A program made the translations under genes and the position numbers. Below, piece after piece: positions 1,442 through 36,088 of a DNA stretch of 64,000 nucleotides. The stretch lies in the IMG/VR virus record IMGVR_UViG_3300045988_170206, positions 64,001-128,000 of that record. The stretch is one strand, 5' to 3'. Source of the stretch: a virus. Numbering within the stretch: position 1 is the first letter of the stretch; the number at the start of each line of letters is the position of its first letter. The notes beneath the pieces are model-generated. The model was not told the DNA's origin. It ran no database searches and saw only the letters and a program-made list of their open reading frames with translations.

Positions 1442-2088
1442 TGGTCGGTGCCTTTCGTCGTGGTGGTGAGCGCTGCGCGTCGCTGGGCTGTGGCGTGCAC
1501 GAGTTCGTCGAGCACATGAGGGTAGAGGCTGCACATCCAGGAGCGGTTGGTGCTCCACCCGTCGGTGGGATGGTGGAGTGCTGTGGGGATGCGGGCGGCG
1601 TTGAGGCTTTCGAGGTAGGAGGTGACTGCGGCGTGAGGGCTGAGGTCTTTGTAGTGGAGGCGCGCTGTGGGTGGCATGTTGGCCCACGTGTAGGAGCCGT
1701 CGTGCTGCTGCTGGAGTTGCTGTGCGGTTACGTCGAGGATGAGTGCGTCGTAGGCCAGGCCTCGGGTGGCTTCAGCGGCGCGGGTGCCATTGCTCGAGCG
1801 GGGGCTGGTGATGGCGACGGCGAGGACATGTCCGTCGTCGTAGTGGAGGGCGTATTCGTCCTTCTTGATGGTGCGGGCCCCTTCTCGGTTGTAGATGGGC
1901 AGGGGGATGGTGGCGAGGCGCGCGAGAGTGTGCAGGCGAGCGAAAGACGGGTGGGCGCACAGGTCGATGCGGGCCGTTCGTTCGACGGTTGCTCCGGCGC
2001 GTCGGCACGTGGAGTAGGCGACGTGGCCGCGGTGTGGGGCGTGGACCGTCGTGTATGGGGTGGAGCTGATGAGCTCTCGGAGGTTCAT
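1438..2088 (-). CDS. hypothetical protein (216 aa)
   Basis: Long ORF with ordinary amino-acid composition. It has a 4-nt start-stop overlap with the neighbouring gene on each side (operon). Confidence 0.65.
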   Translation of the reverse strand: MNLRELISSTPYTTVHAPHRGHVAYSTCRRAGATVERTARIDLCAHPSFARLHTLARLATIPLPIYNREGARTIKKDEYALHYDDGHVLAVAITSPRSSNGTRAAEATRGLAYDALILDVTAQQLQQQHDGSYTWANMPPTARLHYKDLSPHAAVTSYLESLNAARIPTALHHPTDGWSTNRSWMCSLYPHVLDELVHATAQRRAALTTTTKGTDQ

Positions 2089-3110
2089 TCGTCGTTGTCC
2101 TCAGTGGCTAGGTGTCGTGTCGCTTCGAGCTGTACTCGTTGCGCGAGGTCGGGTGGGGGGAGTTCGCCGTGCGTGTCCCAGGCTGGCGGTTGTCCGTTGA
2201 GGGCTTCGGCGTTCTCGAGCTTGAAGCGTTCACGGTCGAAGTCGATGCCGCGCTGGGAGAGCGCCCAGTAGGCGAGGTCTACCTCGGACAGGATAGTGGG
2301 CGTGAGCTGTCCATCGCGGGTGACGACTGTGGGCACGGTGTTGGTCTGGTCGATGGGTTCGATCATGTACGGCTCTTGGTAGCCGAGGTAGCCGACGGCG
2401 CAGTCGGCGAGATGGTAGGAGGCATCGTGGGGTTGGGGCGGGGCGATGAGGTCTGTGTACTTCCACCTGTCGGCGAGGGGGATGTTGCACAGGTCGGTGA
2501 TGGAGTCTTCGATGGTGCCGTTGATCGGCCAGGCCTGTAGGTCCAGCTGGTCGCTGGTGGCGGGGTCGTTGCGGACAACGGCGAGGGTGCAGCCAGTGAG
2601 GCGCGGGTAGGAGCCTGCCGTTGAGGCGGTGGAGAGGCGCGAGTGGACGACGACGACGCTGCCGGTGGTGAACCAGGCGGCGGCGCGTTTCTCTTCGACG
2701 GTGGCCGGGCGGAACGTGTCGAGCTCGCGGGTGACTCCCTGCCAGAGCACATAGTCGATGTCCCTGTAGGTCGCGTTCGTCGTGTCGATGTCGATGTCGG
2801 GGTTGTTGAGCTGCCAGAGGAGGAGCGCGAGCGGCTGGAAGATGCGTCGGTTCTTCACGTGCGCGACCGGGGGCGTGATGAGCGCTCGCGGGGTGGGGGT
2901 GGTGCGGGCCCAGTGGGCGAGGCCGCTCATGTAGGCGGTGACAGTCTGTGCGTCGGTGAGCTTCGGCTCCGTGGAGACGGTGACGGTCGTCGTGTCTCCC
3001 TCACGGGTGAGGGTGGCGCGCTTGTGGGGGCGCTTCTCAGTGTGGAGTAGGGTCTCCCACTGCTGTTTGTAGGGGAGTGCTTGTCGGGCTTGGGTCTGCG
3101 GGTTCATCAT
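2085..3110 (-). CDS. hypothetical protein (341 aa)
   Basis: Long ORF, translationally coupled to both neighbours (ATGA overlaps at 2085-2088 and 3107-3110). No motif recognised. Confidence 0.7.
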   Translation of the reverse strand: MMNPQTQARQALPYKQQWETLLHTEKRPHKRATLTREGDTTTVTVSTEPKLTDAQTVTAYMSGLAHWARTTPTPRALITPPVAHVKNRRIFQPLALLLWQLNNPDIDIDTTNATYRDIDYVLWQGVTRELDTFRPATVEEKRAAAWFTTGSVVVVHSRLSTASTAGSYPRLTGCTLAVVRNDPATSDQLDLQAWPINGTIEDSITDLCNIPLADRWKYTDLIAPPQPHDASYHLADCAVGYLGYQEPYMIEPIDQTNTVPTVVTRDGQLTPTILSEVDLAYWALSQRGIDFDRERFKLENAEALNGQPPAWDTHGELPPPDLAQRVQLEATRHLATEDNDE

Positions 3111-3880
3111 CGGCGGGCCTCATTTCGGAGCTTCTGGGCAAACATGTACTGGTCGTTCGAGTTGCCGCCGGTGCCGGTGATGAGTGCTGCGACGTAGGCG
3201 AGAGTTCCCGCGTCGAGGGCGTGGAGTTCGTCGTGGATGCGAGCCTTCGAGAACTGCATGACGTAGGCGAGGGTCTGCTGGAGCAGCTCGATGTCTGGCG
3301 AGGCCGTGGAAGTCGTGCCATTGGTCGCTGCTTTGAGTTGGGCGATGAACTCGGAGTCGAAGTAGTCCTCGAGGCTCCCGGTGCCGGTGTCGCGGGCGAC
3401 GGCGCGGTCGAGGGTGCGGGCGGCGGCTGCGAGAGAATCGGGGGTGTCGGTGGTGATGAGGGTGAGGAAGTTCTTCCCGAGGCGAGCTTCGACTTCGCGC
3501 AGTCCTTTTTCGACTTCGATGCGCACGGTTGTCTCTTTGCGGTTGAGGTGCTTGCCGATCTCCTCGTAGCTCATGCCTTTATGGGCGAGCGCCCCATCGG
3601 GAGTGCCGGGGATACGGAGCCGGATTGCCTGCGGGTAGAGGCGGGTTTGCCGGTAGGACGCTCCCCTGATGTAGACGACGGTGCGGTTGATGAGGGTTTG
3701 CGCGTCGGCGGACAGGGTATGCGCGTTTGAGACAAGCCTCGTTAGTTGCGTGTAGAACCTCGCCACGATGCTCTCCTTCTGACCACTGATTGAGGGGGTG
3801 ATCGTTGATGTGGGAAAAACCATCGTTTTTTGTCCACGCGCTTTTGCTGGCGGCGTTTTGGGCCTCCTGGAGGGGTTCAC
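3107..3880 (-). CDS. HTH DNA-binding protein (sigma-70 region-4 / LuxR-like helix-turn-helix)
   Basis: The segment HKGMSYEEIGKHLNRKETTVRIEVEKGLREV looks like a region-4/LuxR-type HTH. It is the first gene downstream of the iteron array. Start is uncertain (GTG 3880 or ATG 3823). Confidence 0.55.
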   Translation of the reverse strand: MNPSRRPKTPPAKARGQKTMVFPTSTITPSISGQKESIVARFYTQLTRLVSNAHTLSADAQTLINRTVVYIRGASYRQTRLYPQAIRLRIPGTPDGALAHKGMSYEEIGKHLNRKETTVRIEVEKGLREVEARLGKNFLTLITTDTPDSLAAAARTLDRAVARDTGTGSLEDYFDSEFIAQLKAATNGTTSTASPDIELLQQTLAYVMQFSKARIHDELHALDAGTLAYVAALITGTGGNSNDQYMFAQKLRNEARR

Positions 3881-4285
3881 CGCCGGTTTGGAGGTGCGCG
3901 TGGACTCAAAATGATGTCTGAAACCATCATTTCACGATCAACATTTTTCATCACTTTGAGCGGTCGGAGGGTCGCAGATTGAGATGCGGGTCGGGCGTTG
4001 GGGACGCGGTAGAGGTGGCTAGAGGGGGTTGTTGGCGCGGCGACGCGAGAGTCAGGAATGGGGTGTTTTATCGGGGTTTGTCCAGTTGTGCCACTGCCGG
4101 GTGCTTGTCGGTGGGATGTAATCCCCGCCTGTGTGGACCTATAGTTGCGCCGTGTATATCCTCGCTTCTCTCGGTGGGAACTGGCTCTAGTGCTACCTAG
4201 ATGTCCGCTAGTACACCCCTGAACTATGTCTAGTGCAACCATGATCTAGGCATGGTTAACCTGGATGTCGATAGGTTCAACCTAT

Positions 4286-4331
4286 ATCTTCTATATTGCG
4301 TGTGGACCTAGCCTCTGGTAGTACCAAGAAC
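4286..4331 (+). repeat. 46-bp direct repeat, copy A (atcttctatattgcgtgtggacctagcctctggtagtaccaagaac)
   Basis: About 41/46 identical to 4521-4566 by hand alignment. It lies inside the iteron array. Confidence 0.85.
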
Positions 4332-4520
4332 TAGCTCTAGTTACACCTGTATCTACGCAGGGTTAACTTGGATGTCGATAGGGTTAACCTGTATCTCGAC
4401 AGGTACAACCACTATCTATGTTTTCTCGTGCTGATCTAGGCCTAGGTACAACCTCTATCTGCGCAGGTATAACCTCTATCGCTACAGGTACAACCGTTAT
4501 CTCGGTCAGGTGCAACCTGT

Positions 4521-4566
4521 ATCTTCGATATTGCGTGTGGACCTAGGGGCTAGTAGTACCAAGAAC
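4521..4566 (+). repeat. 46-bp direct repeat, copy B (atcttcgatattgcgtgtggacctaggggctagtagtaccaagaac)
   Basis: Direct repeat of 4286-4331, 235 bp downstream of it. Confidence 0.85.
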
Positions 4567-4748
4567 CAGGTAGAGGCAACCCGGATGTCGGGAGGGTCAA
4601 CCTAGATGTTGGCGGCGGTGTACCTGGATGTGGGTCTAGTGCTACGCGGATGTGGCGCTAGGTGCACTTCCTTCCCTGTGTGAGCATAAGGAGCGGCCCC
4701 TCGCTCGTGGTTATGAGCCGAGGGGCCGACTTGTTGGAGTGGAAGGTT

Positions 4749-5066
4749 CTAGCGTGAGCACTCCGTGGCGTGGGAGTAGATCTTTGCGAGGTCGTCGGGT
4801 GCGACGTTGGCGAGCGAGTGGGTGTCTTGGATCTGGGAGATGGCTACGGGGTCGAGGTCGCTCCATGATTTCTCAACCATGCACTGTGTGGTGGTGGCCG
4901 TGTACTCGCCGAGGCCAACGATGCCCTCGGGCACGTAGGAGCTGGTCCACGGGTGCCAGAGGGTCACGAGGTAGATGACGGCGGCTGCTAGGAGGATGGA
5001 GAGGATCGACTGGACGATGCCGCGGGTTTTGTGCGCCATGCGGAATGGCGTGAAGATGCTGAACAC
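4749..5066 (-). CDS. small membrane protein (105 aa, one N-terminal TM segment)
   Basis: Hydrophobic stretch IVQSILSILLAAAVIYLVTLW. GTG start at 5066, preceded by GAAAGG at ~9 nt. Confidence 0.6.
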   Translation of the reverse strand: MFSIFTPFRMAHKTRGIVQSILSILLAAAVIYLVTLWHPWTSSYVPEGIVGLGEYTATTTQCMVEKSWSDLDPVAISQIQDTHSLANVAPDDLAKIYSHATECSR

Positions 5067-5078
5067 GGCTGGGGCCTT

Positions 5079-5318
5079 TCAGTTGTTGCGCACGGTGTAG
5101 CGCAGTGGGTGGCGGTCGTGGATGAGGACGGGGCGGGCGAGTGCTTCCTTGAGGCGCTGGTGTGCGTTGTTGAGTTCTTGGAAGGCGTGGGGGTCGCCGC
5201 CCCTGTCGGGGTGGAGGGTGCGAGCTCGGGCGCGGAACGCTCGGTTGAGGTCGGCGAGGGTCGCGGTGGAGGTCACGCCGAGGAGCTTGAGGTCGTGGGG
5301 GTTAGGGCGGGGGGTCAT
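5079..5318 (-). CDS. J-domain (DnaJ-like) protein, J domain only (79 aa)
   Basis: LLGVTSTATLADLNRAFRARARTLHPDRGGD contains the diagnostic HPD tripeptide in a J-domain helix II/III context. 4-nt overlap with the upstream 1526-aa gene. Confidence 0.8.
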   Translation of the reverse strand: MTPRPNPHDLKLLGVTSTATLADLNRAFRARARTLHPDRGGDPHAFQELNNAHQRLKEALARPVLIHDRHPLRYTVRNN

Positions 5319-8300
5319 GCTTGTTCCTTGTTCTTCATCTGCTGGCGGTAGTTGGCGATGCCGCCGCCGATCATGGAGGCGAGGCTGCGCACGCCCCTGG
5401 ATGCGACGTTGGCGGCTCCCATGGCGAGGGTGCCGGTGAGGCCTGCGGTGATGCGCCAGGTCTTGCTCAGGCCTCCGAGGTCGGTGCGCTGCCAGGTCTT
5501 GCGCGTGTAGTCGCTGGCGTTGCGTTGGCCTGTGGAGAGGATGTGCGTGGCGGCGGACATGGCGCGCTGCATTTCGTCGTAGCGTCGCACGCCTGATGGT
5601 GTGCCGTTGATGGTGCTCCAGGTCTGGCGGTCGAACTCTTCGCCTTCGATGCTGATGTGCTGGAGGAGCGGCATGTCAGCGAAGAGCTGGGAGATTGACG
5701 AGTCGGGCTTGTACCCGAGGTCGGGGCAGACGTAGGAGCAATAGAAGTCCCAGGAGTCGAAGGACAGTCGGCGCAGGTTGGGCATCTCCCGTAGGACGGT
5801 CCAGTTCATGATGGGCGCGATGTTGGAGGAGCGGATCGCGTCGGTCATGTACGGGGGGATGACTTGGTTGTTGCGCCAGTCGTCGGTTACCTGGGTGCGG
5901 TAGGCGACTCCGTTCATGATGATGGTTTCGCCGACGACTCCGACGCGCTTGACGCGAGCCCAGGTGCCGGCCCATTCGTTCATGTCGGCGTAGAGCGCTG
6001 CTTGCACTGCGTCGGGGGTCATCTCTGTGGGGGTGATGGTGCGGGGGGTGCTGGTGTTGAACTCGTAGCCGCCGCCGGTGGTGGGTCGCACGGGGCTGGT
6101 GGAGTAGTCCCATGTGGGGGCGGGCGCGTCGGGTTCGTCGGGCATGGCCATGCGGTCGGCGTTGGGGTCGGTGGTGTCGTCCATGTCGGGGACGGTGGGG
6201 GCCGGGGGCATGGGTGGCGGTGGGGGGACAGGTGGGATTGGCGCAGTGGGTGTGGCGACGGTCGGGGGTTGGGGGATCGCTGTGTGCGCGTCTTGGGTGT
6301 CGCTGGCGGCGCGCTCGGCGGCTGGCTTATCGTCGTCGCCGGTGAGGCCGCTCATGTCCCACTCTTCTGCGTCGCTGCCCGCGAGCGCGAAGCCGCTGTT
6401 GGTGTCTTCTGACTCGAAGGCCTGGGGGTAGACGTGACGGAATAGGGTGACGGACTGGGGATCGTACTCGTAGCCCTGGAAGACGTTGTAGATGTCCTCG
6501 ACGGAGGCGATCCACTGCGGGCGCAGGTCGGACACCCATTCTTGCCAGGTGCCCTCGTAGCCGAGTTTGCGGACGGTGAGGTTCGCTGCGTCGGAGAGCT
6601 TCTGGAGTGTGGCCGCGGCTTGCTCGCGGGTGACTCCGGCTTTCGCGAGGTAGCCCTCAAAGCCGAGGGAGGGGTCGAGCTCGCCGGTGTCGGTGGACAC
6701 GTCGCGTCGGACGGCTTCTACGTCCACGCCTGCACTCTTCATGTAGGAGATGGAGTTGTTCCAGCAGTAGCCGTCTTCACTGCCGTCGGCGAACAGGAGG
6801 CCGGGGCGCAGGTAGGTGGCGGTGCGCGCGACGGATTCGTCGCCGTTCATGATCTTGTGGATGTTATCGCCGCTGAATCCGGGGAGGTAGGCGAAGCATC
6901 GCATGGTGGAGGACAGCTTGTCGGAGGCGTAGGAGCCGGGGGTGAGCTGGTTCAGGTAGTTGCGTCCAGGGTGATGGCCGATGAGCACGTCGGTCTTGCC
7001 GATGGAGGCGTAGCTGTAGATGAAGTTGTCAGCCTCCTTGAAGGGGATCGAGATGTTCTTCGTGCTGGCGTTGAGCGGTTTGCCTGCGGGGAAGAACTGG
7101 CCGATGTCAGTGACGGGGTTGACGGGATCCTGGCCGATCATGAAAACGCGGGAGCGTTTGGCTTCGGCGTTGTTGAAGCCTGCGTTGCGTAGCTGGGATA
7201 GTTTCTCGAAGGAGCGGCGCATCATGAAGTACATGCTGGTAAACCACAGTTCGCCGGGGTTCACTTCCTGCTTGGGCTTCTTCTTGTCGTCGAAGTCGGA
7301 CTGCTCCCACGCGACCCACTCGGACTCGTAGTTCGTGTAGCACATGTGGCCTTGCATGTTGGACTGGAAGAACGTCTGGATCTGCTGGTTCGTGTTACTG
7401 ATTTCATCGAACACGATGCAAATACCGTCTTTTCCGCCTAGTTGTTCAGCGATTTCGGGGCTGATTGTGCGGGCTGCGAGCATTCCGAGCGCGAGGATCA
7501 TGTATCGCAGGTAGACGACGGTGCCGAGGGTGCCCGTGTAGCCGGGGGCCCACGCGAGGTTGTTCTTGTTCAGGTACTCGGGGATGTGGGCGCGGGCTTC
7601 GAGCTCGGCGACCTTTGCTGCCGTGTACTGCATGAACATGTCCGTACCCTCTTCGGGGTTGCTGGCGATGTTCGAGCCGTTGATGACGAAAGCGTCGGGG
7701 TTGATCGACAGGAGAAGAGAGGCCATGTCGGGCTTGTTGTCGCCCAGGCCCGGCGCGATGCCGGCGATGAGGTGCATTGCAAGGATCGTCTGCGTGGTCA
7801 GGCCCTTACCGGATCGGGAGCCCGCGAAGATGCCGTGGCTGGTGTGATCGTTGAACTGCCTGATCTCCTTGCCGGTGGTCACTACGTCATCATCGAGGCC
7901 GATGCCGAGGATCATGTTGCTGGCGCTGGGCTTGCGTCCCTGGCGTTGCATCGCGTCGAGGATCTTGCCTGCCCACACGGGTGAGGCGTTGGCGAGTACC
8001 TTGTCCATGTCGTGCCGGAACTCCCAGAAGATCCCCTCGTTGATGGGGTCGTAGTTCTGGGCTGTTGTGCCGCCTGCGAAGCCGAGGGCTTCGACGATGG
8101 CGCGCTCGACGATGTTCTCGCTGAAGCCTTCGTAGGGGGTGAGGACTCGGACCTTGACCTTGACGGGGATGTTGCTCGGGGAGTTGTCGTAGGCGGAGAC
8201 GAGGACGCACGTCGTCATGGCCTTGTAGATGCTCTCGAGCGCGCCGACGACCTTGGTCATCATGGAGGGGTCGTGGTAGGCGAGGCCGTTGTCGGCTTCG

Positions 8301-9895
8301 CTCTTGAGGAGGGCGCGGACGACGGCGGTGAGCATGGCTTGCAGGCTCTTCTTGACTTCGCGTTCGCGGTAGGTGTCCCAGGAGGATGCGTCGCTGTGGC
8401 GGGGGTAGAGGTCTTGCGCGCCGTCGTTGGACTCTCGTCCAAAGGCATACTCGAGCATCTTGTAGGGGAAGTAGAAGCGTGTGCCGTTGGGGTAGGTGTT
8501 GCCCTGGCGGTCCTTCCCGTTAATCAGGATCTCGGCGATCTCGTTGATGTTTCTCGTCGGCATGGGGGTCAAGTGCTGCGCTGCTTGGATCTGTTCCCAG
8601 AGGCGCAGGAGGACGAGGTTGTGGGTGCGCTGGTAGGCGCGTCCGTCGGAGGAGAGGGCCATGAGTCGGCCTTGGCCTTCTTCGTCGCAGGTGAGGACAC
8701 CGGCGGGCTGGAGGACGCTGTAGCCGGACTTGAAGATGCGGTCGTACTCGTCGAGGATGCTTTCGGCGCGGGCGACGATCTGGCCTTGGTAGAAGGTCAT
8801 GGCCTCTTCGGGCACGTTGTCGCCGGCGGTTTCACCATTGAGGGCTGCGAGTACCTTGTCGATGGTGATGTCGCGGGTGATCTTCTCGAAGCCCAGGTTC
8901 GTGCGCGCATCCTGGGGGAGGGAGGCGAGGTAGAGGGCGGCTGAGCGTTCGTCGCTGGCTGCGTCAAGGAGGATGCCGCGGCTTTGAGAGTTGACCTTGG
9001 AGGCGAGTGCCTTGTGGTTGGCGAGGGTTGGCCACCATCCTGGCTGCGTGTCGAGGTCGGTGAGGTCGCGACACTGGGAGGCCATCGCCGCCGTGTAGGG
9101 CTCGCCTTTTTCGAGGCTGGCTTTGAGAAGGGCCAGGATCTTGGTGTGGTGGGGGCTGGTCTCGAAGTCGTGGAGACGATCAGCGAGGTCGTCGCCGGGG
9201 GTGTCCTCGTCGGGCGCGGGGATGCGGGCGGGCGCGTCCGTGTCGGTGTCGTCGCGCATCTGCTCGCGCTTGGGGGCCTTGAGGGAGGACAGGTAGGTCT
9301 CGAGGGTACCGCCGATCTGGTCGGAGGCGTAGACGTTGGGGGCGAGCTGGTAGGACTCGACGACCTGCGCGAAGGGGCGCAGTTGCGTGTAGTGGCCGTG
9401 TGTGGCGAAGTCGGTGGCCAGAGCGAGGCGCGCGCCTTCGGGTGCGTCGGGGATGAGGGGGCGGGGGTCGCCTTTCGCGCCGGAATGGGCCGACATGTAG
9501 GCTTCGCGTTCGAGGCGCAGGCTCCGGGCGATCTGCTCGATGGGGGGCATGATGTCGTCGGGGATCTGGTAGTAGCCGCCAAGGCGCACGCCTTCACTGA
9601 ACATGCTTTCGACGTTGACTCCCTCGAACATGCTGGCGGGGGCGACGATGGCTTCGAGTGCGCCGAACTGCTTGTGGGAGAGGGCGCGCAGCGGAGACTT
9701 CGACGTGGAGGAAGGTTTCGTGGCGGCGCGCGTGAGCTCGCCCTTCGTTTTGCCGTGACGTTCCACGTACACGCCGTCATGGGCGATGATGAGGGTCTTG
9801 ACCGTGTTGGGGGTCCATGTCCCGTAGTCGGTGCCGTCGCCGTCGGTGATGTAGTGGCCTCCGAGGGCCTTGATGGTGTCGTCGTAGGTAGTCAC
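5315..9895 (-). CDS. very large FtsK/SpoIIIE(HerA)-like P-loop protein (1526 aa), putative DNA translocase
   Basis: ILGIGLDDDVVTTGKEIRQFNDHTSHGIFAGSRSGKGLTTQTI matches the FtsK-type pre-Walker-A plus Walker A layout. ICIVFDEIS is Walker B, and RSRVFMIGQDP resembles the FtsK RxG..QRP segment. There is a proline-rich tract (PIPPVPPPPPMPPAP) and a hydrophobic C-terminus. Confidence 0.55.
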   Translation of the reverse strand: MTTYDDTIKALGGHYITDGDGTDYGTWTPNTVKTLIIAHDGVYVERHGKTKGELTRAATKPSSTSKSPLRALSHKQFGALEAIVAPASMFEGVNVESMFSEGVRLGGYYQIPDDIMPPIEQIARSLRLEREAYMSAHSGAKGDPRPLIPDAPEGARLALATDFATHGHYTQLRPFAQVVESYQLAPNVYASDQIGGTLETYLSSLKAPKREQMRDDTDTDAPARIPAPDEDTPGDDLADRLHDFETSPHHTKILALLKASLEKGEPYTAAMASQCRDLTDLDTQPGWWPTLANHKALASKVNSQSRGILLDAASDERSAALYLASLPQDARTNLGFEKITRDITIDKVLAALNGETAGDNVPEEAMTFYQGQIVARAESILDEYDRIFKSGYSVLQPAGVLTCDEEGQGRLMALSSDGRAYQRTHNLVLLRLWEQIQAAQHLTPMPTRNINEIAEILINGKDRQGNTYPNGTRFYFPYKMLEYAFGRESNDGAQDLYPRHSDASSWDTYREREVKKSLQAMLTAVVRALLKSEADNGLAYHDPSMMTKVVGALESIYKAMTTCVLVSAYDNSPSNIPVKVKVRVLTPYEGFSENIVERAIVEALGFAGGTTAQNYDPINEGIFWEFRHDMDKVLANASPVWAGKILDAMQRQGRKPSASNMILGIGLDDDVVTTGKEIRQFNDHTSHGIFAGSRSGKGLTTQTILAMHLIAGIAPGLGDNKPDMASLLLSINPDAFVINGSNIASNPEEGTDMFMQYTAAKVAELEARAHIPEYLNKNNLAWAPGYTGTLGTVVYLRYMILALGMLAARTISPEIAEQLGGKDGICIVFDEISNTNQQIQTFFQSNMQGHMCYTNYESEWVAWEQSDFDDKKKPKQEVNPGELWFTSMYFMMRRSFEKLSQLRNAGFNNAEAKRSRVFMIGQDPVNPVTDIGQFFPAGKPLNASTKNISIPFKEADNFIYSYASIGKTDVLIGHHPGRNYLNQLTPGSYASDKLSSTMRCFAYLPGFSGDNIHKIMNGDESVARTATYLRPGLLFADGSEDGYCWNNSISYMKSAGVDVEAVRRDVSTDTGELDPSLGFEGYLAKAGVTREQAAATLQKLSDAANLTVRKLGYEGTWQEWVSDLRPQWIASVEDIYNVFQGYEYDPQSVTLFRHVYPQAFESEDTNSGFALAGSDAEEWDMSGLTGDDDKPAAERAASDTQDAHTAIPQPPTVATPTAPIPPVPPPPPMPPAPTVPDMDDTTDPNADRMAMPDEPDAPAPTWDYSTSPVRPTTGGGYEFNTSTPRTITPTEMTPDAVQAALYADMNEWAGTWARVKRVGVVGETIIMNGVAYRTQVTDDWRNNQVIPPYMTDAIRSSNIAPIMNWTVLREMPNLRRLSFDSWDFYCSYVCPDLGYKPDSSISQLFADMPLLQHISIEGEEFDRQTWSTINGTPSGVRRYDEMQRAMSAATHILSTGQRNASDYTRKTWQRTDLGGLSKTWRITAGLTGTLAMGAANVASRGVRSLASMIGGGIANYRQQMKNKEQA

Positions 9896-10526: not shown

Positions 10527-10761
10527 GAGTGGTTCCTTCCTATCCCCACGGTGGGGGCTTGGGTTTGGTCTTCTGGGTTACGAGTATCCATCGTGGGGAG
10601 CGTCATGAGTGTAGCGGCGCACCCAAGGGTGGACATGTGCCCATCATGCCACACAAACTCAGACGTGCACGAACTGGACAGGCCATTCGCAGCGTAAATG
10701 TGCGAGATGCCTAGACGTTCTGTGCTGTTAGGCGCAGATATGTTGCCTCAGAGGTGAGGGG

Positions 10762-10859
10762 GTAGTCCAAGTTTTGGATGACGTTCACCACCCAAGCAGG
10801 TCACTTTTTCGGGGGGGGGTAGTCCAAGTTTGAGACGACCCCGTAGTCCAAGTTCTGGA
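10762..10859 (+). promoter_or_regulatory. three direct copies of GTAGTCCAAGTTnnGGA/GAGA in a divergent intergenic region (operator/promoter candidate)
   Basis: Copies at 10762-10778, 10819-10835 and 10843-10859. They lie between the minus-strand nrdH operon and the plus-strand HTH gene at 11059. The second copy is preceded by a G9 run. Confidence 0.6.
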
Positions 10860-11058
10860 CGTAAACGTATATAGAAACCATTGAAGATAAAGAACTACCC
10901 CCTCTAGTCCCCCAAGCCGTTCACGCGAGGCTGTCCAAAGCGCATGGCTGGTTGAGCAGGCGCGCGCTTCGCGCACGCGAGCGAGAGACACACGTAGTTG
11001 AATTGCACACAAAGGGAGGTGTGTGTAGACTGACGATCACCAGAAAGGAAGGAGCAAC

Positions 11059-11502: not shown

Positions 11503-12138
11503 ATGTCTAGCTTCGAAGAGTGCAACGCGCAGCTCGCAGCACCCAAGCGCACGGGGGAAGATAGCCCCCTGTACGGTCTGGGAGCTGTGTCCCACCCGGC
11601 CATCGCAGTCATCCATTTCGACCCGCTGCTGGAGCACAAGCTCACGCGCAAAGAGAGGGCCTTCATGGTCTGGTTCTTCACGCGCTGGAACGATCCCTAC
11701 GTTGAGTACGACGTTGAGGGGATCATGAAGCTGACAAACATGAAGCGCGATGAAGTGCACATGACTCTCTACAACCTGTGCGCGCGCGACATCATCCGCA
11801 TGAAGGCCATGCAGCGGAAGGATGACGAGACAAAGGTTGCGGTCTTCCTGTACTTCGAGCCCTCCCACCTTTTCGTGCCCGAAGCTGTGAACCTGGCTGG
11901 CTGCTTCAATGGGTGTGTCCACTCGTTCTCCGAGTGGGTTGACCCCGCACGACCAGTCACCCTCGAAGAGATCGAAGCGTCACTGCCTACCTACGAGTGG
12001 ATCGATCCGCGCAACATGAAGTGGCTTCAAGCCCAGCGCGAGAAGGGGAGCAACCAGACCCGAACGCAGAAACGTCTTGCTTTCGAGGCTCAGGCCAAGA
12101 AGGACGAAGCCGGGGCGGAAACCCGGACGCAGAAGTAA
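11503..12138 (+). CDS. hypothetical protein, possible winged-helix (211 aa)
   Basis: Long ORF 3 nt after the previous stop. The central segment (IMKLTNMKRDEVHMTLYNLCARDIIRMK) is wHTH-like. A hairpin terminator follows. Confidence 0.6.
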   Translation: MSSFEECNAQLAAPKRTGEDSPLYGLGAVSHPAIAVIHFDPLLEHKLTRKERAFMVWFFTRWNDPYVEYDVEGIMKLTNMKRDEVHMTLYNLCARDIIRMKAMQRKDDETKVAVFLYFEPSHLFVPEAVNLAGCFNGCVHSFSEWVDPARPVTLEEIEASLPTYEWIDPRNMKWLQAQREKGSNQTRTQKRLAFEAQAKKDEAGAETRTQK

Positions 12139-12143
12139 AAGCA

Positions 12144-12173
12144 AGAGGGGGAACCCCTTGAGGCTCCCCCTCT
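12144..12173 (+). terminator. hairpin (AGAGGGGGA ... TCCCCCTCT)
   Basis: 9-bp perfect stem with a 12-nt loop, directly after the stop at 12138. There is no clear U tract. Confidence 0.5.
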
Positions 12174-12214
12174 CTCATAGAAAGATAGCTATATTGTATC
12201 AGCTTTTTGACGGA

Positions 12215-13642
12215 ATGCACGTGTCTGCACTCCACGCTGCCGTCAACTTCCGCAAGCACCTCAAGGTGGACCTGAGTCGCAGGGAAGTTCTGACACTCAT
12301 GGCGCTGTTCACCTTCTGGCAGTGCAAGATCATCAGCCCCTCCTACAACCTCCTCCTCGAGCGGTGTGTTGGCGCAAAGCGCTCCACGATGTTCACCGCC
12401 ATGAAGTCCCTCGAGGACCGAGGCCTCCTCATTCGACGCTCGTTCCTGGATCGCAAGGACGGGTCGCGCCACGTCGTGTTCTTCCTGGACCTCCCTGGGA
12501 TCTTCACCGACGAATGCTGCGCGCAGCTCGACTCCGATCCCAAGTCGCCGATCACGACCCGTCACACCATCGAAGTGGGGCGAACTGCCAGCACTGAGGA
12601 AATCCTCGCCATGGTCACGTTCGCTGACGTGTCCCAGTGGCAGGAAATCGACTGCAAGCTGACACGTAGGAAGCTGCCACTAGGTAACTTCGACGACCTA
12701 AGCGGCTTCCTCCTGCCCTGCCCGGACAACTTTCCTGTGCACGAAGAGGAAGAGCCAAAGCCGGAGCTGTGCGTCGCAGTCAGCGACAACCAAGGCGATC
12801 TCTTCGACATGCTGCACGAAGCGAAGACACAGGAAACCAGCAACAAGGCCGCGGCAACGCATGGCACGGAAGACCAAGGCGCATATGGCACGTTGTGGCC
12901 TACTGCCGCCACCATCCCTGGCGGCTCAGTGTGGACCCCTGCCGACGTGGAGGACACGTCCACGGTGCCCGCTACTCCAGCAGCGGGAGAGAGCGTCCAG
13001 GAGCGCGCTGAGCGCATCATCCGCGACCATCCTGGCGACGACATGATCGATGCTGAGATCATCGACGTGGAGATCGTCGAAGACGAAACCCCCTCGGACG
13101 CGCTGATCGACGTTCCCGCGTCCCAGGAGCTCGCCATCGCCACCCCTGCGGTGCCCGTGAAGGCCAAGAAGCAGACCGGCTACACCGATGACTTTGAGAA
13201 CTTCTGGCGCACCTACCCGCGCCGCATCGAGAAGAAGTCCGCCTTCAAGGCATGGAAGACTGCGCTCAAGAGCGGAGCAACCGCCGACGAGATCACCGCA
13301 GGCGCAGCCCGCTACGCCAAGTACCGCGCAGGCGAACCCGAGCGCTTCACAAAGCACCCCTCGACCTGGCTCAACCAGGGATGCTGGGAGGACGAGTACT
13401 CGACCGCCGGCATCGGCTACGGATACAACGGCGGCAACGGCACTGGCCTCGTTGCTCGCACACCAGAGGAGGCCGAATACCTCCGCCAGCTCGACAACTC
13501 CTGCTCGGAGATGTTCTACCGCAGCCTCGGCTTCAACAGCGCTGAGGAATACGTTGAGTACCAGCGAGGAATCGCCGAACTCAACGCCCGAGAAGCCGAA
13601 GCTGCATACGCCGAAGCCGCAGCCCGACGCATCGCTTTCTGA
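12215..13642 (+). CDS. winged-helix (MarR/Rep-like) protein with a phage replisome-organizer-like C-terminal domain
   Basis: The N-terminus (KRSTMFTAMKSLEDRGLLIRRSFLDRKDGSRHVVFFL) is wHTH-like. The C-terminus (FENFWRTYPRRIEKKSAFKAWKTAL...HPSTWLNQGCWEDE) matches a module I recall from actinophage replication-region proteins. ORF 12077.. is trimmed to the ATG at 12215, after the terminator. Confidence 0.6.
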   Translation: MHVSALHAAVNFRKHLKVDLSRREVLTLMALFTFWQCKIISPSYNLLLERCVGAKRSTMFTAMKSLEDRGLLIRRSFLDRKDGSRHVVFFLDLPGIFTDECCAQLDSDPKSPITTRHTIEVGRTASTEEILAMVTFADVSQWQEIDCKLTRRKLPLGNFDDLSGFLLPCPDNFPVHEEEEPKPELCVAVSDNQGDLFDMLHEAKTQETSNKAAATHGTEDQGAYGTLWPTAATIPGGSVWTPADVEDTSTVPATPAAGESVQERAERIIRDHPGDDMIDAEIIDVEIVEDETPSDALIDVPASQELAIATPAVPVKAKKQTGYTDDFENFWRTYPRRIEKKSAFKAWKTALKSGATADEITAGAARYAKYRAGEPERFTKHPSTWLNQGCWEDEYSTAGIGYGYNGGNGTGLVARTPEEAEYLRQLDNSCSEMFYRSLGFNSAEEYVEYQRGIAELNAREAEAAYAEAAARRIAF

Positions 13643-14477: not shown

Positions 14478-14873
14478 ATGAACTCCCAGATCGCCCTCCT
14501 CAACATCACCTTTGGAATGCTTGTATGCCTAGTGTGGCATCCCCTGCTCGCATCTCCCTCCTTGTGGAGGAAACGCAAGAATCTGAGCGAAGAACAACGC
14601 GCTAGACTGTATTTCACGCGAGCGCTGGCCATTATCGCCGTACTCGGTCTAGCCCACATGTTGAGTGTAGTAACCCTAGGGTGGTCATCTGCGCATGAGC
14701 TGCTGTCGGCTAAAAGCTACACGCTTCTCATTACTGCGGCGGGCATTTCCTCGTGCATTGTTGGATCATGGATGCTCCTAATTCAACGGAAGCGCGAAAC
14801 CCCCGAATATGACGGGCGATCCTTTATCGCCATTGGGCTGTTCATCCTCGTCACAAACTTCCTCATCTCCTGA
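14478..14873 (+). CDS. membrane protein (131 aa, ~4 TM)
   Basis: ORF 14358.. trimmed to the ATG at 14478. There are several hydrophobic segments. It is locally less GC-rich than its neighbours. Confidence 0.6.
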   Translation: MNSQIALLNITFGMLVCLVWHPLLASPSLWRKRKNLSEEQRARLYFTRALAIIAVLGLAHMLSVVTLGWSSAHELLSAKSYTLLITAAGISSCIVGSWMLLIQRKRETPEYDGRSFIAIGLFILVTNFLIS

Positions 14874-28749: not shown

Positions 28750-30564
28750 ATGAACGACTACAACGACATTGAAGACCTCGACGAGACGACGGAAGACACC
28801 ATCGTCCTGAACCTTGATGACGACATTGACGACCTTGACGAAGCCGACCTCGAGACCCCAGACGAGGATGAGGACGACTACGACGAATACGAGGACGACG
28901 AAGATGACGATGATGAAGACGAGGACGACGTAACCTCAGCTCCCGTCACCACCTTCGCGCTCACCCCACTACGAGACGAGGCCGACAAGGCCGACGAGGA
29001 TGCTGCGGACGACAGCGACGAAGCGCCCGAGGATGATACGGACCTCAACGAGGGCGCTGACGACGAAACCAGCACCGACACCGAGGGCACTCCCTTCCGC
29101 ATCGACATCGACACGGACAACCTCGACAGTGCGGCAGTCGAAGCGATCAGTAGCGTCAACGACGTTGTGACCGTCAAGAGCGACGCATACTCTGTCCGCT
29201 ACACGCACATCAGCCCTCACCAGGTCGTCGGCACCAAGCCCGTCAAGGACTACCGCGCCGACACCTACAGCGGACTCTTCAACGTGATCCGCGAAATGGG
29301 GGTTATCGTCCCCGTCGTCGTCACGCCGCTCGCTGAGTACGCCGACTTCCTCGCCGCCAACAACATCACCACAGGCGCAGAAGCCGACGAGCTCGGCTAC
29401 GCGGGCCCACGCTACCGAGTCCTCGACGGGTGGCGACGAATCTTCGCGTCCCTCAAGAACCATCATGACGAGATCCCCGCCGCCGTCGTCACCTTCCACG
29501 ACCCCGAGGTTGGGCGCGACCTATCCAACCTCATGCACCTCGTCCTCAACCGCACCCAGGAGCACACGTGGCCCGAGAAGTGGGCGATGCAGCAAGTGTT
29601 GGAAGAGTCTTACTCTCTCACCCCATCCATGCTCGACTGGCTCCTCCTCATCGAGCCGGGCGACTCCATGCGCCTCAAGGAAGTCATGCTCGCCGAGTAC
29701 CCCGAAGTGACTGAGGGCTTCCTGTCGGGCAAGAAAGACCTCACACGGTCCTACAAGGCCCTCGAAAAGCTCCGCAAGGCAGAAGCGAACCCAACGGCAG
29801 GCGACGACGACCGGAAGATCTCCAGCGTTGACGAAGCCGGCGACCTCGCAGCCGCCGACACGGAAGATGCCCCCCTTACCGACGAGGAAGTCAAGAACCT
29901 CCTCGAAATGGGCGACGAACTCCGCGAAGTCCGCGACCTCCTCAACAAGGAAGCCGACACCGACGACGCAGACATCGACGATGAGAACTACGGCGGCGAC
30001 CCCATCCCCGAAAACGCAGCCGAACAGGTCGGCTTCGAGGGCGGCGACGACGACGAGGACATGTTCGGCGAAGTCGATGAGAACACCGTCCAGGACACGA
30101 AGGACCGAAAGCCCCTCTCCAAGGAGCTACGCACGGCGATCCTCGCGCGCGACGAGTTCACCTGCCAGGCCTGCGGCTACGGCAAGGGCATCACGTCCAT
30201 GGTTCACCTCGGACAGCTCGAAGCCCACCACAAGACCAGCGTCTACGTGGGCGGCTCTGACGCGATGAGCAACTTCGTGACGCTCTGCCAGCGCTGCCAC
30301 GGCCTCGTGCACATCCTCGCTGGCTTCAACGCCAAGATCGGCATGACCAAGGAAGAGTTCGAGAACGTCCCCGACAACGATCAGACGATGTTCCGCGTCT
30401 GCATCAAGCTCGCAAAGGTCATCCTTAAGGCTGAGGAGGAGACCGGCAAGGCGCTCAGGAAGTACAAGCCTGTGCGCAACCCGTTCTGGGAGCAGCAGAA
30501 GCAGGCGCAAGAAGTCGTCAAAACCCTAAAGGGTGAGGAAGCATTGGAGGATACAGCGCAATGA
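28750..30564 (+). CDS. ParB-N (ParB/Srx nuclease-like) domain fused to a C-terminal HNH endonuclease, with a poly-acidic N-terminus
   Basis: GLFNVIREMGVIVPVVV...YRVLDGWRRIFAS is ParB N-domain-like. CQACGY...LEAHHKTSVYVGGSDAMSNFVTLCQRCHGLVH is an HNH motif. The N-terminus contains DDYDEYEDDEDDDDEDEDD. Confidence 0.65.
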   Translation: MNDYNDIEDLDETTEDTIVLNLDDDIDDLDEADLETPDEDEDDYDEYEDDEDDDDEDEDDVTSAPVTTFALTPLRDEADKADEDAADDSDEAPEDDTDLNEGADDETSTDTEGTPFRIDIDTDNLDSAAVEAISSVNDVVTVKSDAYSVRYTHISPHQVVGTKPVKDYRADTYSGLFNVIREMGVIVPVVVTPLAEYADFLAANNITTGAEADELGYAGPRYRVLDGWRRIFASLKNHHDEIPAAVVTFHDPEVGRDLSNLMHLVLNRTQEHTWPEKWAMQQVLEESYSLTPSMLDWLLLIEPGDSMRLKEVMLAEYPEVTEGFLSGKKDLTRSYKALEKLRKAEANPTAGDDDRKISSVDEAGDLAAADTEDAPLTDEEVKNLLEMGDELREVRDLLNKEADTDDADIDDENYGGDPIPENAAEQVGFEGGDDDEDMFGEVDENTVQDTKDRKPLSKELRTAILARDEFTCQACGYGKGITSMVHLGQLEAHHKTSVYVGGSDAMSNFVTLCQRCHGLVHILAGFNAKIGMTKEEFENVPDNDQTMFRVCIKLAKVILKAEEETGKALRKYKPVRNPFWEQQKQAQEVVKTLKGEEALEDTAQ

Positions 30565-33878: not shown

Positions 33879-33967
33879 GGAAAGGTGCCCGAGTGGCTGA
33901 AGGGGCCTCCCTGCTAAGGAGGTAAACAGAGGAATCTGTTTCGCGGGTTCGAATCCCGCTCTTTCCG
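33879..33967 (+). tRNA. tRNA-Ser (anticodon GCT), type II
   Basis: Hand-folded. Acceptor GGAAAGG/TCTTTCC, anticodon arm CCTCC-CTGCTAA-GGAGG, long variable arm AAACAG-aggaat-CTGTTT, T arm GCGGG-TTCGAAT-CCCGC. No encoded CCA. Confidence 0.85.
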
Positions 33968-33969
33968 CA

Positions 33970-34046
33970 GGACGCGAGAAGCGCCTGAGACGAGTTACTT
34001 CATTTGGATCGAAACTACACTCGACTCAACTTTTTCTCTCGCGTCC
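33970..34046 (+). ncRNA. structured non-tRNA element 1 (Y-RNA candidate)
   Basis: Closing stem GGACGCGAG/CTCGCGTCC (9 bp). Inner stem GAGACGAGT/ACTCGACTC (1 mismatch). It shares a ~28-nt block (GAGTTACTTCATTTGGATCGAAACTACAC) with 36206.. It lies between tRNA-Ser and the Ro60-like gene. No ORF. Confidence 0.45.
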
Positions 34047-34092
34047 CCCACTTTTGCCCAAAACACAACCAGAACCCAGAAAGGAGAGCGTC

Positions 34093-35664
34093 ATGGCGCG
34101 CATGAATACCCGAGGCGCGAAGCCTCGCAACATGGCTACCACTCCCGTCAGTACGACGACGGGACAGGCCTTCACCGCAGAAGGTGGAATGGGGTGGCAG
34201 CGCACCCCCAAGGGCGAGCTGTTCCTCGCCGCCGTGACCTCCCTCAACGAGGACACCTTCTACGAGACCGCCGATGAGCGCGTCAACCGTATCCAGACCC
34301 TCACCACGGACCCCGAGATCATCAACAGCCCCGAGTGGGCGCTCGGCATGGTCCGCTGGCTCCGCCAGGAAGTCGGACTCCGCTCGATCCCCGGTGTTGT
34401 CGCCATGACCGTCGTTAAGGCACGCCTGGACGCTGGCCTGACCGGCACGAACCGTCAGATTATCGAAGCGGCCATCGGTCGCCTCGACGAGGCCTCCGAC
34501 ATGATCGCCGGGTGGATGAGCCTGTACGGGCGTAACATCCCATCCTGCGTGCGCCGTGGCGTTGCCGACGCTCTGCGCGCCCGACTGTCCGAGCGTTCCT
34601 ACCTCAAGTGGGTTGGCCGCATGAACTCGGGTAGCGTCACGCTCCGCGATGTCATCAACCTGACGCACCCCAAGCCGAAGGGTAAGACGCAGGAAGCGCT
34701 CATCAAACTCGTGCTCGACGAGGGCTACGGCAAGAAGGGCGACGACAAGCAACTACCCACCATCCGAGCACGCCGTCAGTTCCTCGCCATGGACCGTGAC
34801 GCGCAGATTAGCGCCCTCACCGGCCCGGACGCGAAGGATGTCATCCGTAAGGCTGCTCTCACCCACGAGGTGATCGCAGGCGCAATCGGGACGATCCCCG
34901 CCGACGTGTGGGAAACCCTCGTCCCCGAGATGGGTTACATGGCCCTGCGAATGAACCTCCGACGCATCGAAGCATCCGGCGCGTCTCGCGCGCTGATCGC
35001 CACGATCAACGAGCGCCTGAGCGACGTGGAAGAGGCTGCGAAGTCTCGCACCATGCCGGTCGCGTTCTACGCAGCGTACAAGAACGCGCCGCTGGCCTTC
35101 GCCGCCGCCCTACAGGACGCAGCGAACGCTTCGCTCGAGAACGTTCCCGCGCTCAAGGGGCGCACGCTGGTCCTCCTGGACCGCTCCGGCTCGATGAGCT
35201 ACCCCATGTCGGCGAAGTCGTCGCTGAGCTGCCAGGACACGGCCAACGTGTTCGCGTCGGCGCTCGCTATTCGAGGCGAGAGCGTCCGAGTGGTTGCGTT
35301 CGACGATCACATGGAGGACGTGAAGGTCGCCAGCACGGACCTGCTCCGTGTCGTGGACCAGATGCCCACCGCTCGAGGCTGCACCTACACGCCGGATGCT
35401 GTCGCTTACGCCCACAAGAAGGGCGAGAAGTACGACCGCATCATCATCCTCACGGATGAGCAGTACAGGGGCGGCAGCGTCGATAACGCGCTCGACACGT
35501 ATGCTCCCAGGGTTCCGGTGTTCACCTGGAACTTGGCGGGCTATGCGACAGCGCAGATGGAGGCCCGAGAGGGCCGCTGGACCTTCGGCGGACTCTCCGA
35601 CAAGGGCTTCCAGATGATCCCGCTCCTCGAGCGCGGGATCGGCCAGTCCTGGCCCTGGGAGTAA
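34093..35664 (+). CDS. rsr: Ro60/TROVE-domain plus vWA protein (Rsr-like ribonucleoprotein)
   Basis: 523 aa. The C-terminal vWA has MIDAS LVLLDRSGSMS and IIILTDEQ. The N-terminal ~350 aa are a helical-repeat region, and the length and layout are typical of bacterial Ro orthologs. GAAAGGAGAG SD lies before the ATG at 34093. Confidence 0.75.
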   Translation: MARMNTRGAKPRNMATTPVSTTTGQAFTAEGGMGWQRTPKGELFLAAVTSLNEDTFYETADERVNRIQTLTTDPEIINSPEWALGMVRWLRQEVGLRSIPGVVAMTVVKARLDAGLTGTNRQIIEAAIGRLDEASDMIAGWMSLYGRNIPSCVRRGVADALRARLSERSYLKWVGRMNSGSVTLRDVINLTHPKPKGKTQEALIKLVLDEGYGKKGDDKQLPTIRARRQFLAMDRDAQISALTGPDAKDVIRKAALTHEVIAGAIGTIPADVWETLVPEMGYMALRMNLRRIEASGASRALIATINERLSDVEEAAKSRTMPVAFYAAYKNAPLAFAAALQDAANASLENVPALKGRTLVLLDRSGSMSYPMSAKSSLSCQDTANVFASALAIRGESVRVVAFDDHMEDVKVASTDLLRVVDQMPTARGCTYTPDAVAYAHKKGEKYDRIIILTDEQYRGGSVDNALDTYAPRVPVFTWNLAGYATAQMEAREGRWTFGGLSDKGFQMIPLLERGIGQSWPWE

Positions 35665-35674
35665 CCACCCACTA

Positions 35675-35713
35675 GGGGCCTCGCCCAACACTCCCACCAC
35701 AGGGCGAGGCCCC
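35675..35713 (+). terminator. hairpin GGGGCCTCGCCC ... GGGCGAGGCCCC after the Ro60-like gene
   Basis: 12-bp perfect stem with a 15-nt loop and no U tract. It may be a processing or attenuation structure, since tRNAs follow immediately. Confidence 0.45.
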
Positions 35714-35719
35714 ACCAAC

Positions 35720-35793
35720 GCCCCTATAGCTCAGTTGGTTAGAGCTGCGGACTTTTAATCCGAGGGTCGCAGGTTCGAGTCCTGCTGGGGGCA
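35720..35793 (+). tRNA. tRNA-Lys (anticodon TTT)
   Basis: Hand-folded. Acceptor GCCCCTA/TGGGGGC, D arm GCTC-AGTTGGTTA-GAGC, anticodon loop CTTTTAA, T arm GCAGG-TTCGAGT-CCTGC. Confidence 0.9.
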
Positions 35794-35813
35794 CTCAGTG
35801 AAAAACTGAACAT

Positions 35814-35901: not shown

Positions 35902-35912
35902 ACTGAATACAT

Positions 35913-35984: not shown

Positions 35985-35990
35985 CTCCGA

Positions 35991-36063: not shown

Positions 36064-36088
36064 CTCCAACAACTAAATAACCCACTGA

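Follow-up and report, generated by a model that had tools for sequence, protein, structure and literature searches.

The centromeres of type II and type III segregation systems consist of direct repeats gathered in one locus upstream of the operon that carries the motor gene, and the type II repeats are helix-phased, as in R1 (10 × 11 bp) and pSK41 (contiguous 20-bp repeats), with the centromere either continuous or split into blocks (PMC5016525). In the CGP3 prophage of Corynebacterium glutamicum, the adaptor AlpA binds 24 repeats (alpS) upstream of alpA–alpC and links the DNA to actin-like filaments (PMC4446434). In the TubZRC systems (tubC of pBtoxis and pBsph), the winged-helix protein TubR forms a filament or ring on blocks of direct repeats and also represses its operon (PMC5016525). 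Here we analyze an array of ~21-bp repeats in a 64,000-nucleotide stretch of IMG/VR record IMGVR_UViG_3300045988_170206 (positions 64,001 to 128,000 of the record; hereafter the window, numbered from its first letter), where the array precedes an operon that opens with the gene for a helix-turn-helix (HTH) protein and also encodes an actin-like ATPase. Most plausibly, this array represents an actin-type partition or positioning centromere in undescribed large elements of oral actinobacteria, within a module that departs from the canonical ParMRC layout.

With ParMRC (parC/ParR/ParM of R1, and pSK41) the locus shares tandem repeats gathered at a single place upstream of the operon of an actin-like ATPase. 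The differences lie in the genes: no ribbon-helix-helix (RHH) ParR was found next to the actin-like gene, the candidate binder is a 238-residue HTH protein that is encoded first, three genes separate this adaptor candidate from the actin-like gene, and the operon is long and multifunctional; for these reasons the locus is not a canonical ParMRC locus. The array is also much larger (22 slots, 470 bp), with higher-order blocks and a second unit type, and the actin-like protein is just weakly ParM-like. Compared by layout, the AlpA/AlpC/alpS system of CGP3 appears similar in its actinobacterial host, in an adaptor gene of no known family (a candidate adaptor here) upstream of an actin-like gene within one operon, in the many repeats upstream of that operon, and in its setting within a large mobile element with Lsr2-type silencing. 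However, alpS is a short degenerate motif (TTAAnnG) for which no strict phasing in a 21-bp array has been described, alpA lies next to alpC whereas three extra genes intervene here, and AlpAC has been shown to act in the efficient replication and transport of phage DNA rather than in plasmid inheritance. TubZRC resembles the locus in its direct repeats upstream of an operon and in a binder of helix-turn-helix type (a candidate binder here), but its motor is a tubulin rather than an actin, and TubR is small and not sigma-region-4-like. The tubC repeats are 12 bp long and number 7–14 copies.

Architecture of the array

The array occupies positions 4186–4655 on the + strand, slightly more than a preliminary description of the window, made from the sequence alone, had assigned to it, and was delimited by matrix scan, pattern enrichment and autocorrelation. 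An iteratively refined position weight matrix identifies 19 A-type units of 21 nt each, all on the + strand and scoring 10.6–25.1 bits, with the + strand consensus GCAGGTACAACCTGGATCTCG (in operon sense, ...AGATnCAGGTTGnACCTG...). These units start 21 or 22 bp apart, and three 43-bp gaps between them each hold one slot of a second, B-type unit, so that 22 slots fill 449 bp at an average period of 21.4 bp, or two turns of B-DNA. The tight spacing expected from the preliminary description (21–23 bp) was thus recovered, but its count of about 17 copies was slightly too low. Most of the information content of the matrix sits in three boxes, namely AGGT, AACC and ATCT/ATGT. The B-type slots, which recur every 4–5 slots, lie on the + strand at 4292–4313 (TATATTGCGTGTGGACCTAGCC), 4420–4441 (GTTTTCTCGTGCTGATCTAGGC, a degenerate copy) and 4527–4548 (GATATTGCGTGTGGACCTAGGG), and two of the three have TATTGCGTGTGGACCTAG in common. 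A lone copy of the B-type core GTGTGGACCTA can also be read at 4132–4142 (+ strand), between the array and the promoter region of the operon.

Above the level of single slots, the array repeats itself at 107 bp (5 slots) and 235 bp (11 slots). A 46-bp direct repeat reported earlier is present, although it belongs to a longer and imperfect pair of 62 nt (4273–4334 and 4508–4569, 87% identical), and the palindromic core that had been ascribed to several copies, GGTTAACC, occurs exactly only twice (4254 and 4382), with one near-copy (4361). The periodicity is clear from the autocorrelation, which peaks at lag 21 (z 7.2–7.5), lag 43 (z 5.4) and lag 64 (z 4.5); Tandem Repeats Finder returned just two period-21 sub-stretches within the array. 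The loose pattern GKNNNAMCNNNWTST matches 16 times in the window compared to 4.9 ± 1.9 times in dinucleotide-preserving shuffles (n = 100), none of which reached 16; 12 of the 16 matches fall at 4190–4631, all on the + strand, and the other four lie elsewhere in the 64 kb. Beyond the array, a single site in the window (46973, − strand) exceeds ~12 bits with the A-type matrix, a count that is not independent because the matrix was trained on the array's own units. The array is the sole large non-coding array within the window, and an Rfam scan of 3700–4900 gave no match.

Conservation of the array among related elements

Close relatives of the element are plentiful in IMG/VR, ENA, JGI and Logan assemblies (contigs of 133–146 kb), and all 17 of the close-relative loci that span the region completely carry the array at the same place, with 17–22 A-type units and with HTH proteins that are 85–99% identical. 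Their arrays differ chiefly by phase-preserving tandem duplication of whole 4- or 5-slot blocks. Specifically, locus L014 contains four perfect copies of a 106-bp five-slot block and L013 four copies of an 85-bp four-slot block, with one B-type slot (consensus in relatives, GATTTCGCGTGTGGACCTAccc) in each block and duplicated along with it. Since blocks are duplicated in phase while copy number varies, the function of the array would tolerate a change in number but not in phase. Within this close clade, small variants of the HTH protein gave no clear signal of covariation with the core composition of the array. Six contigs end inside an array (L006, L012, L013, L019, L037 and L039), and L047, L048 and L054 end ~3.4 kb upstream of the actin-like gene, the expected distance of the array, which thus seems to interrupt short-read assemblies systematically.

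Four more distant clades carry arrays with a 20–22-bp period, and their unit sequences differ by clade. Autocorrelation reveals lag 20–21 as a dominant or strong periodicity in all five array-bearing sets, each of which also has a TTG-containing core on the operon sense strand (GGTTGnACC in the window) with clade-specific flanking bases. In the clade of L040 and L047–L054 (contigs of 110–123 kb), ~10 units with a 21/22-bp period and the core CTTGGTCATGAA / CTTGGTCATATAG lie ~250 bp upstream of the HTH gene, and the operon is syntenic gene for gene, with identities of 32% for the HTH protein, 30, 25 and 53% for the next three, 41% for the actin-like protein, and 30 and 33% for the two that follow. 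The homologue of the large gene that neighbors the array on its other side in the window (48% identical) is here 9.3 kb and eight genes away, so that the array travels with the HTH/actin-like operon and not with the large gene. In L057 (P0086; HTH protein 26% identical by family alignment), seven 20-bp units CCTTGAAGTCTGMCTT (CCTTGAAGTCTG...) end ~100 bp before the HTH start codon, and a second cluster of four more units lies 790 bp upstream. In L056 (P0083; likewise 26% identical by family alignment), two large arrays consist of double units, CTTGAAGGGTTCG / CTTCAAGGGTTCG, and one array immediately precedes a gene pair for a 491-residue protein and an actin-like protein; in front of the HTH gene is a 22-bp repeat of another kind. 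L039 (large protein 36% identical) has a 21-bp array with the core CTTGAAGTCC after the large gene, a DnaJ gene and a small open reading frame (ORF), and its contig ends within the array. The contig of L055 (P0082; HTH protein 28% identical by family alignment) shows no array within 1.28 kb upstream and is too short to judge.

Taken together, the array is real, non-random and evolutionarily maintained. Its period, position and orientation are kept, its unit sequence is clade-specific, and its phase is held while copy number varies, a pattern typical of a cis-acting site whose protein co-evolves with it and binds cooperatively, and not of junk satellite DNA.

The operon downstream of the array

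All genes from position 1 to ~10.5 kb lie on the − strand. As had been proposed, the HTH gene is the first of the operon beside the array (3107–3823, with the ATG at 3823 as called on related contigs; the longest ORF begins at 3880). After it, gene calls on related contigs place the genes for a protein of 340–341 residues (2085–3110), a protein of 216 residues (1438–2088), a protein of 279 residues (602–1441) and the actin-like ATPase (397 residues), the 5′ part of which (1–573) is cut by the window edge. The second and third proteins belong to no known family and have syntenic orthologues in L040 that are 30 and 25% identical, respectively, and the fourth is the best conserved of the operon (53% to L040). 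In the preliminary description the operon ended at the actin-like gene, but on related contigs it continues with genes for proteins of 453, 208 and 492 residues, an FHA protein, a PP2C phosphatase and a Ser/Thr kinase.

The actin fold of the product of this gene, described earlier as ParM/Alp-like, is confirmed on a full-length homologue, which matches PF21522 (MreB-like_C) with 42.2 bits against a cut-off of 27.8, and the phosphate-1 motif in the window copy reads DFGNSETR. The similarity to ParM in NCBIfam is weak (E 1.5e-6, far below the cut-off), and the best annotated relative is a ParM/StbA family protein of plasmid pXO16. Among the window proteins scanned, this is the sole member of a known partition NTPase class. 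The HTH protein, all-helical and resembling sigma-70 region 4 or HTH_38, is the one predicted DNA binder of the operon and the candidate array-binding adaptor, with a conserved GTGG..SDR motif near its C-terminal end; its Pfam matches to HTH_38 and sigma-70 region 4 are below the cut-off (21.6 bits compared to 27), and an exhaustive profile-free search of 1.84 billion representatives places its family at eight clusters at 50% identity. Among the scanned operon proteins, none was recognized as an RHH ParR, and the 453- and 208-residue proteins belong to no known family. PDB sequence and profile searches gave no match for the HTH protein, its family alignment or the large protein, and just a marginal one, to actin/MreB, for the actin-like protein. 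The AlphaFold model of the HTH protein has a predicted local distance difference test score (pLDDT) of 47.6, which is too low to use, and Foldseek gave no PDB match for it at E ≤ 0.001.

Insertions of the IS605/IS607 type (a serine-resolvase TnpA with TnpB) are polymorphic among the relatives (L021, 12195–14077; L024, 12202–14078 and 2365–3669; L022, 2360–3667; L040, 1141–3025), and one of them lies inside the HTH-to-actin operon, between the genes for the 216- and 279-residue proteins.

A putative centromere and its alternatives

We propose, with moderate confidence, that the array is a centromere-like protein-loading platform for the adjoining operon, comparable in layout to parC and to alpS of CGP3, with the HTH protein as its adaptor. 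The preliminary description had left three options (a type II centromere, a clt-type locus or an iteron origin) unranked, and the first of these is the best supported here, since distant clades again combine an array, an HTH-first operon and an actin-like gene, with repeats peculiar to each clade. A shared TTG core with clade-specific flanks is what a co-evolving protein and its site would show. Sigma-70 region 4 reads TTG-type boxes, and the resemblance of the HTH protein to this region rests on the below-cut-off Pfam match. A large, circular or circularly permuted element of 133–146 kb with pilus and sortase genes would also have a need for partition, and the position of the recognizable initiator gene and of the strand and skew switch, 6–8 kb from the array, favors a centromere in that it would place the origin elsewhere.

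We infer that the HTH protein binds the array and couples it to the actin-like protein, with segregation or positioning of the element as the outcome. Specifically, the 238-residue protein would bind each ~21-bp unit through contacts to the TTG-containing box and to another box, GAT[A/C]. The two-turn spacing would put all bound protein on one face of the DNA, where it could polymerize cooperatively and form an extended nucleoprotein filament or ring. With B-type slots set among the other units, a second factor may be able to bend or punctuate this complex. Filaments of the actin-like ATPase would then capture the complex and move or position copies of the ~140-kb circular element, such that daughter cells inherit it. 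In addition, the complex of HTH protein and array probably exerts feedback on operon transcription.

Several observations weigh against a centromere. The HTH protein, as putative adaptor, differs from an RHH ParR, and its gene opens the operon, with three genes of unknown function between it and the actin-like gene. The operon runs into many more genes (FHA, PP2C and Ser/Thr kinase, with a UvrD helicase in other clades) and is therefore not a dedicated par cassette. A spacing of 21–22 bp is also classic for replication iterons. Loss of the repeats where the flanking genes are kept, named earlier as an outcome that would speak against a function, is not seen in any of the 17 close-relative loci that span the region, but L063 (P0085, 22% GC; HTH protein 22% identical by family alignment) keeps the order of large gene, DnaJ gene, small ORF, gap and HTH gene, and autocorrelation detects no periodic array in its 856-bp gap (8145–9001) at the syntenic position. 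In this clade, either the repeats are too degenerate to see or there are none. Likewise, no comparable array was found in the two pXO16 regions examined, which flank its homologues of the large and actin-like genes. Finally, the ~45–55 kb of the element outside the ~95 kb examined could hold a ParABS system or virion genes.

If the array were instead an iteron replication origin or copy-control locus, an initiator encoded beside it (the HTH protein, alone or with the 340-residue protein) would bind the 21-bp repeats and melt neighboring DNA, or handcuff sister copies as P1 incA and F incC do. Iterons of theta plasmids are direct repeats of 17–22 bp about two helical turns apart, and the clusters of P1 (incC/incA), F, R6K and RK2 resemble the array in this two-turn spacing and in that multiple clusters are possible. 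The ~21-nt direct repeats at 21–22-bp spacing on one strand, a GC content that is locally the lowest (45–50% compared to 61%), and the gene for a DNA-binding protein directly downstream all fit an origin, as do the two separate clusters in L056 and L057, which would suit handcuffing, and an arrangement in two distant clades that resembles a replication module (the HTH gene, a ~380-residue gene, then a UvrD-type helicase gene). Sigma-like HTH partners of Rep also occur in actinobacterial plasmids (pAL5000 RepB). However, no Rep_3-type or other initiator gene is adjacent, and the four genes beside the array have no Rep, primase or helicase-loader match in Pfam, PHROGs or NCBIfam; 19–22 or more copies are several times the number in theta-plasmid clusters and far above typical origin sets; and the GC profile shows no discrete AT-rich block flanking the array that could serve as an unwinding element. 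The sole recognizable initiator is a DnaD-like protein encoded at 12077–13642 (phrog_270, E 2.7e-32), 7.4 kb from the array, beside the point at ~10.5–11 kb where transcription diverges and cumulative GC skew turns at its maximum, and beside a small repeat cluster at 10758–10869. GC skew had been suggested earlier as a check for an origin, and its turn lies 6–8 kb from the array. We consider an origin at the array unlikely. A purely transcriptional role, in which the array would be a multi-site operator or a nucleation platform for the HTH protein or for an Lsr2-type silencer (which prefers AT-richer DNA) and would switch the long maintenance operon without any mechanical part, appears somewhat less probable again. 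Its position upstream of the first gene of a long operon, its low GC content relative to the surroundings, the Lsr2-like and WhiB-like proteins encoded by the element, and a conserved inverted repeat between array and start codon would all suit such control, and the alpA promoter region of CGP3 is reportedly also a silencer target. Yet an array of 22 phased sites spread across 470 bp, with ~360 bp between its end and the start codon, goes well beyond what known operators need, and strict phase with clade-specific units argues for a specific structural nucleoprotein complex. Transcriptional control overlaps with a centromere, because the centromere doubles as operator in partition systems.

Variable copy number and recent perfect duplications of blocks are also what a non-functional minisatellite, kept by slippage and unequal recombination, would display. 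This explanation is scarcely credible given that the same period, position and orientation occur with different sequences in clades whose flanking proteins are 25–50% identical, and that the information of the units is concentrated in specific boxes. The remaining candidate, a clt-like transfer locus, would be recognized by the large P-loop protein, which would pump the double-stranded element into a recipient. This protein of 1526 residues is encoded at 5315–9895 (− strand), and the array starts 660 bp past the 3′ end of its gene, as had been described, with two small genes in between: one for a DnaJ-domain protein of 79 residues (5079–5318, − strand; PF00226, 37.6 bits) and an ORF of 105 residues that is the last gene of this upstream operon (4749–5066, − strand, by gene calls). 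A clt would accord with this proximity, which recurs in L039, and with the long gap that L063 keeps at the position after the large gene, with the Walker A (GSRSGKG) and Walker B (IVFDE) motifs of the protein, with its homologue on the conjugative plasmid pXO16 (25% identity), and with an element that carries pilus, sortase and cell-wall hydrolase genes. The FtsK-like label given to the protein earlier has nothing behind it beyond the Walker A/B pair readable in the translation: the protein matches neither FtsK/SpoIIIE nor any other family, VirD4 and VirB4 included, in Pfam, PHROG, NCBIfam or PDB sequences, the AlphaFold model of its ATPase core (pLDDT 47.5) is too low to use, and Foldseek found no PDB match for it at E ≤ 0.001. 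In the L037/L040/L049 clade, moreover, 9.3 kb and eight genes separate the array from the large gene, although the array still directly precedes the HTH operon, and no array is seen in the examined flanks of the large-gene homologue on pXO16. In the Streptomyces TraB/clt system, the recognition repeats are 8 bp long and tied to the 3′ end of the translocase gene, whereas the units here are 21 nt long and the array is decoupled from the large gene in the sister clade. The large protein is thus a neighbor of the array and not a demonstrable partner, and a clt is poorly supported and very improbable.

Returning to the putative centromere, we tentatively suggest a more specific and more doubtful proposition, namely a previously undescribed actin-based DNA positioning module in which the array would act together with the sigma-region-4-like HTH protein and the divergent actin-like ATPase. 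It would comprise a long, two-turn-phased centromere with 4–5-slot blocks and two unit types and an HTH rather than RHH adaptor, and would serve undescribed circular extrachromosomal elements of ~110–146 kb in human oral Actinomycetes (Schaalia-like hosts) that are distant relatives of pXO16. If true, this would add a third type of adaptor (HTH, sigma-4-like) for DNA segregation by actin or tubulin, beside RHH ParR and winged-helix TubR, and would reveal an unusually large centromere whose higher-order repeats expand and contract in natural populations. Clade-specific repeats would in that case predict incompatibility groups. Array, binder and motor would further provide an experimental handle on widespread, uncharacterized large mobile elements of the human mouth, in a family of elements most of whose proteins match nothing known. 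If the array is an origin instead, the same comparative set defines the replicon of the family.

Surroundings of the array

The array lies in an ORF-free gap that reaches from 3823 or 3880 to 4749, is left uncalled by gene calls on related contigs and, in agreement with the preliminary description, is AT-richer than its surroundings (45–50% GC compared to ~61%). Within it, the array forms the lowest-GC stretch of the neighborhood and ends ~360 bp from the start codon of the HTH gene. Directly past the stop codon of the 105-residue gene, a GC-rich hairpin (CGGCCCCTCG...CGAGGGGCCG; 4694–4728, − strand) can be read from the sequence and is likely the terminator of the upstream operon, bounding the array on that side; it was not called by a consensus terminator scan because it has no T-run. 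Promoter and terminator scans of 3700–4800 gave counts no better than shuffles. On the other side, a perfect inverted repeat, AAATGATG-N8-CATCATTT (3909–3932), lies ~90–110 bp upstream of the HTH start codon and is operator-like. CTGATG-N8-CATCAG occurs at the equivalent place in L040 (~3530–3560) and L049 (~6650–6680), which belong to a clade with different array units. Because it is kept between clades that differ in their array units, the inverted repeat may be bound by a separate, conserved regulator.

Other identities considered for the array were ruled out. A small-terminase or pac site is excluded by neighboring genes that lack any PHROG match and have nothing terminase-like among them, clustered regularly interspaced short palindromic repeats (CRISPR) by units that abut without spacers, and tandem promoters by the lack of a −10-like element at the right distance from the units.

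The element, its host and its kinship with pXO16

One contig is circularly permuted relative to the others, and the genome is therefore circular or permuted. Proteins from metagenome-assembled genomes (MAGs) at NCBI place relatives in Schaalia sp. The rest of the window carries replication, recombination and regulation genes of actinobacterial-phage type: in addition to the DnaD-like initiator, it encodes RecT, RusA, SSB, WhiB, a C5 methylase, a ParB_N-HNH protein, Ro60/TROVE and an Lsr2-like protein (53620–53967). The ParB_N and HNH protein (28750–30564) is of the nuclease type rather than a partition ParB. No virion genes were found in the ~95 kb of the element examined, though the contigs are filed in IMG/VR; together with the protein relatives on plasmid pXO16, this makes a large plasmid or phage-plasmid a better description of the element than a lytic phage. 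The repeat cluster at 10758–10869, made up of three to four copies of GTAGTCCAAGTT(T)nGGA with an AT-rich stretch after them, sits in the divergent intergenic region where strand and skew switch, at 1.2 kb from the DnaD-like gene, and is a candidate replication origin or lysogeny-type operator.

The sole annotated relatives of the 1526-residue, actin-like and 492-residue proteins (24–33% identity) are those of pXO16 from Bacillus thuringiensis (window 5315–9895 and 1–573, and L020 16580–18058, respectively; pXO16 loci L001 and L035). pXO16 is a conjugative plasmid with adhesion and aggregation functions, and most of its proteins are without known function (PMC6199540, PMC9673590). It resembles the element as a large element with mostly proteins of unknown function and differs in that its large and actin-like genes are ~59 kb apart; no homologue of the HTH protein was detected on it. 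At the level of protein sequence similarity, these matches point to a very distant kinship between the element and pXO16. Near-identity nucleotide searches with window positions 3000–9000 against plasmid and phage collections gave no match, scans of GTDB genomes with the large protein and with P0083 (a distant HTH homologue) yielded no relatives, scans of IMG/VR and metagenomes with the distant HTH homologues P0082 and P0083 returned nothing, and a literature search for such an element in oral Schaalia or Actinomyces found nothing relevant.

Also present are an AAA_21/AbiEii-like ATPase gene (57294–58652) and genes for a zeta-toxin/AAA_33 protein, a GmrSD_C protein and an IrrE-type peptidase, and the element therefore carries defense or addiction functions. 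In relatives, a sortase-dependent pilus cluster lies ~15–25 kb past the actin-like gene (10682–20192 in L059, contig IMGVR_UViG_3300045988_174140) and comprises a 1463-residue Ig-like adhesin, a DUF7507/DUF11 protein, a SpaA-type pilin and a sortase. Proline-rich coding tandem repeats of 30–33 bp occur at 52831–53169, within an ORF of 603 residues (51637–53448). The window also contains seven tRNA genes at 33879–36368 (two for Ser and one each for Lys, Glu, Arg, Tyr and Gln), which flank the Ro60/TROVE-vWA gene (34054–35664), and a tRNA-like sequence lies beside the Ro60 homologue in L037 as well (~14660–14750).

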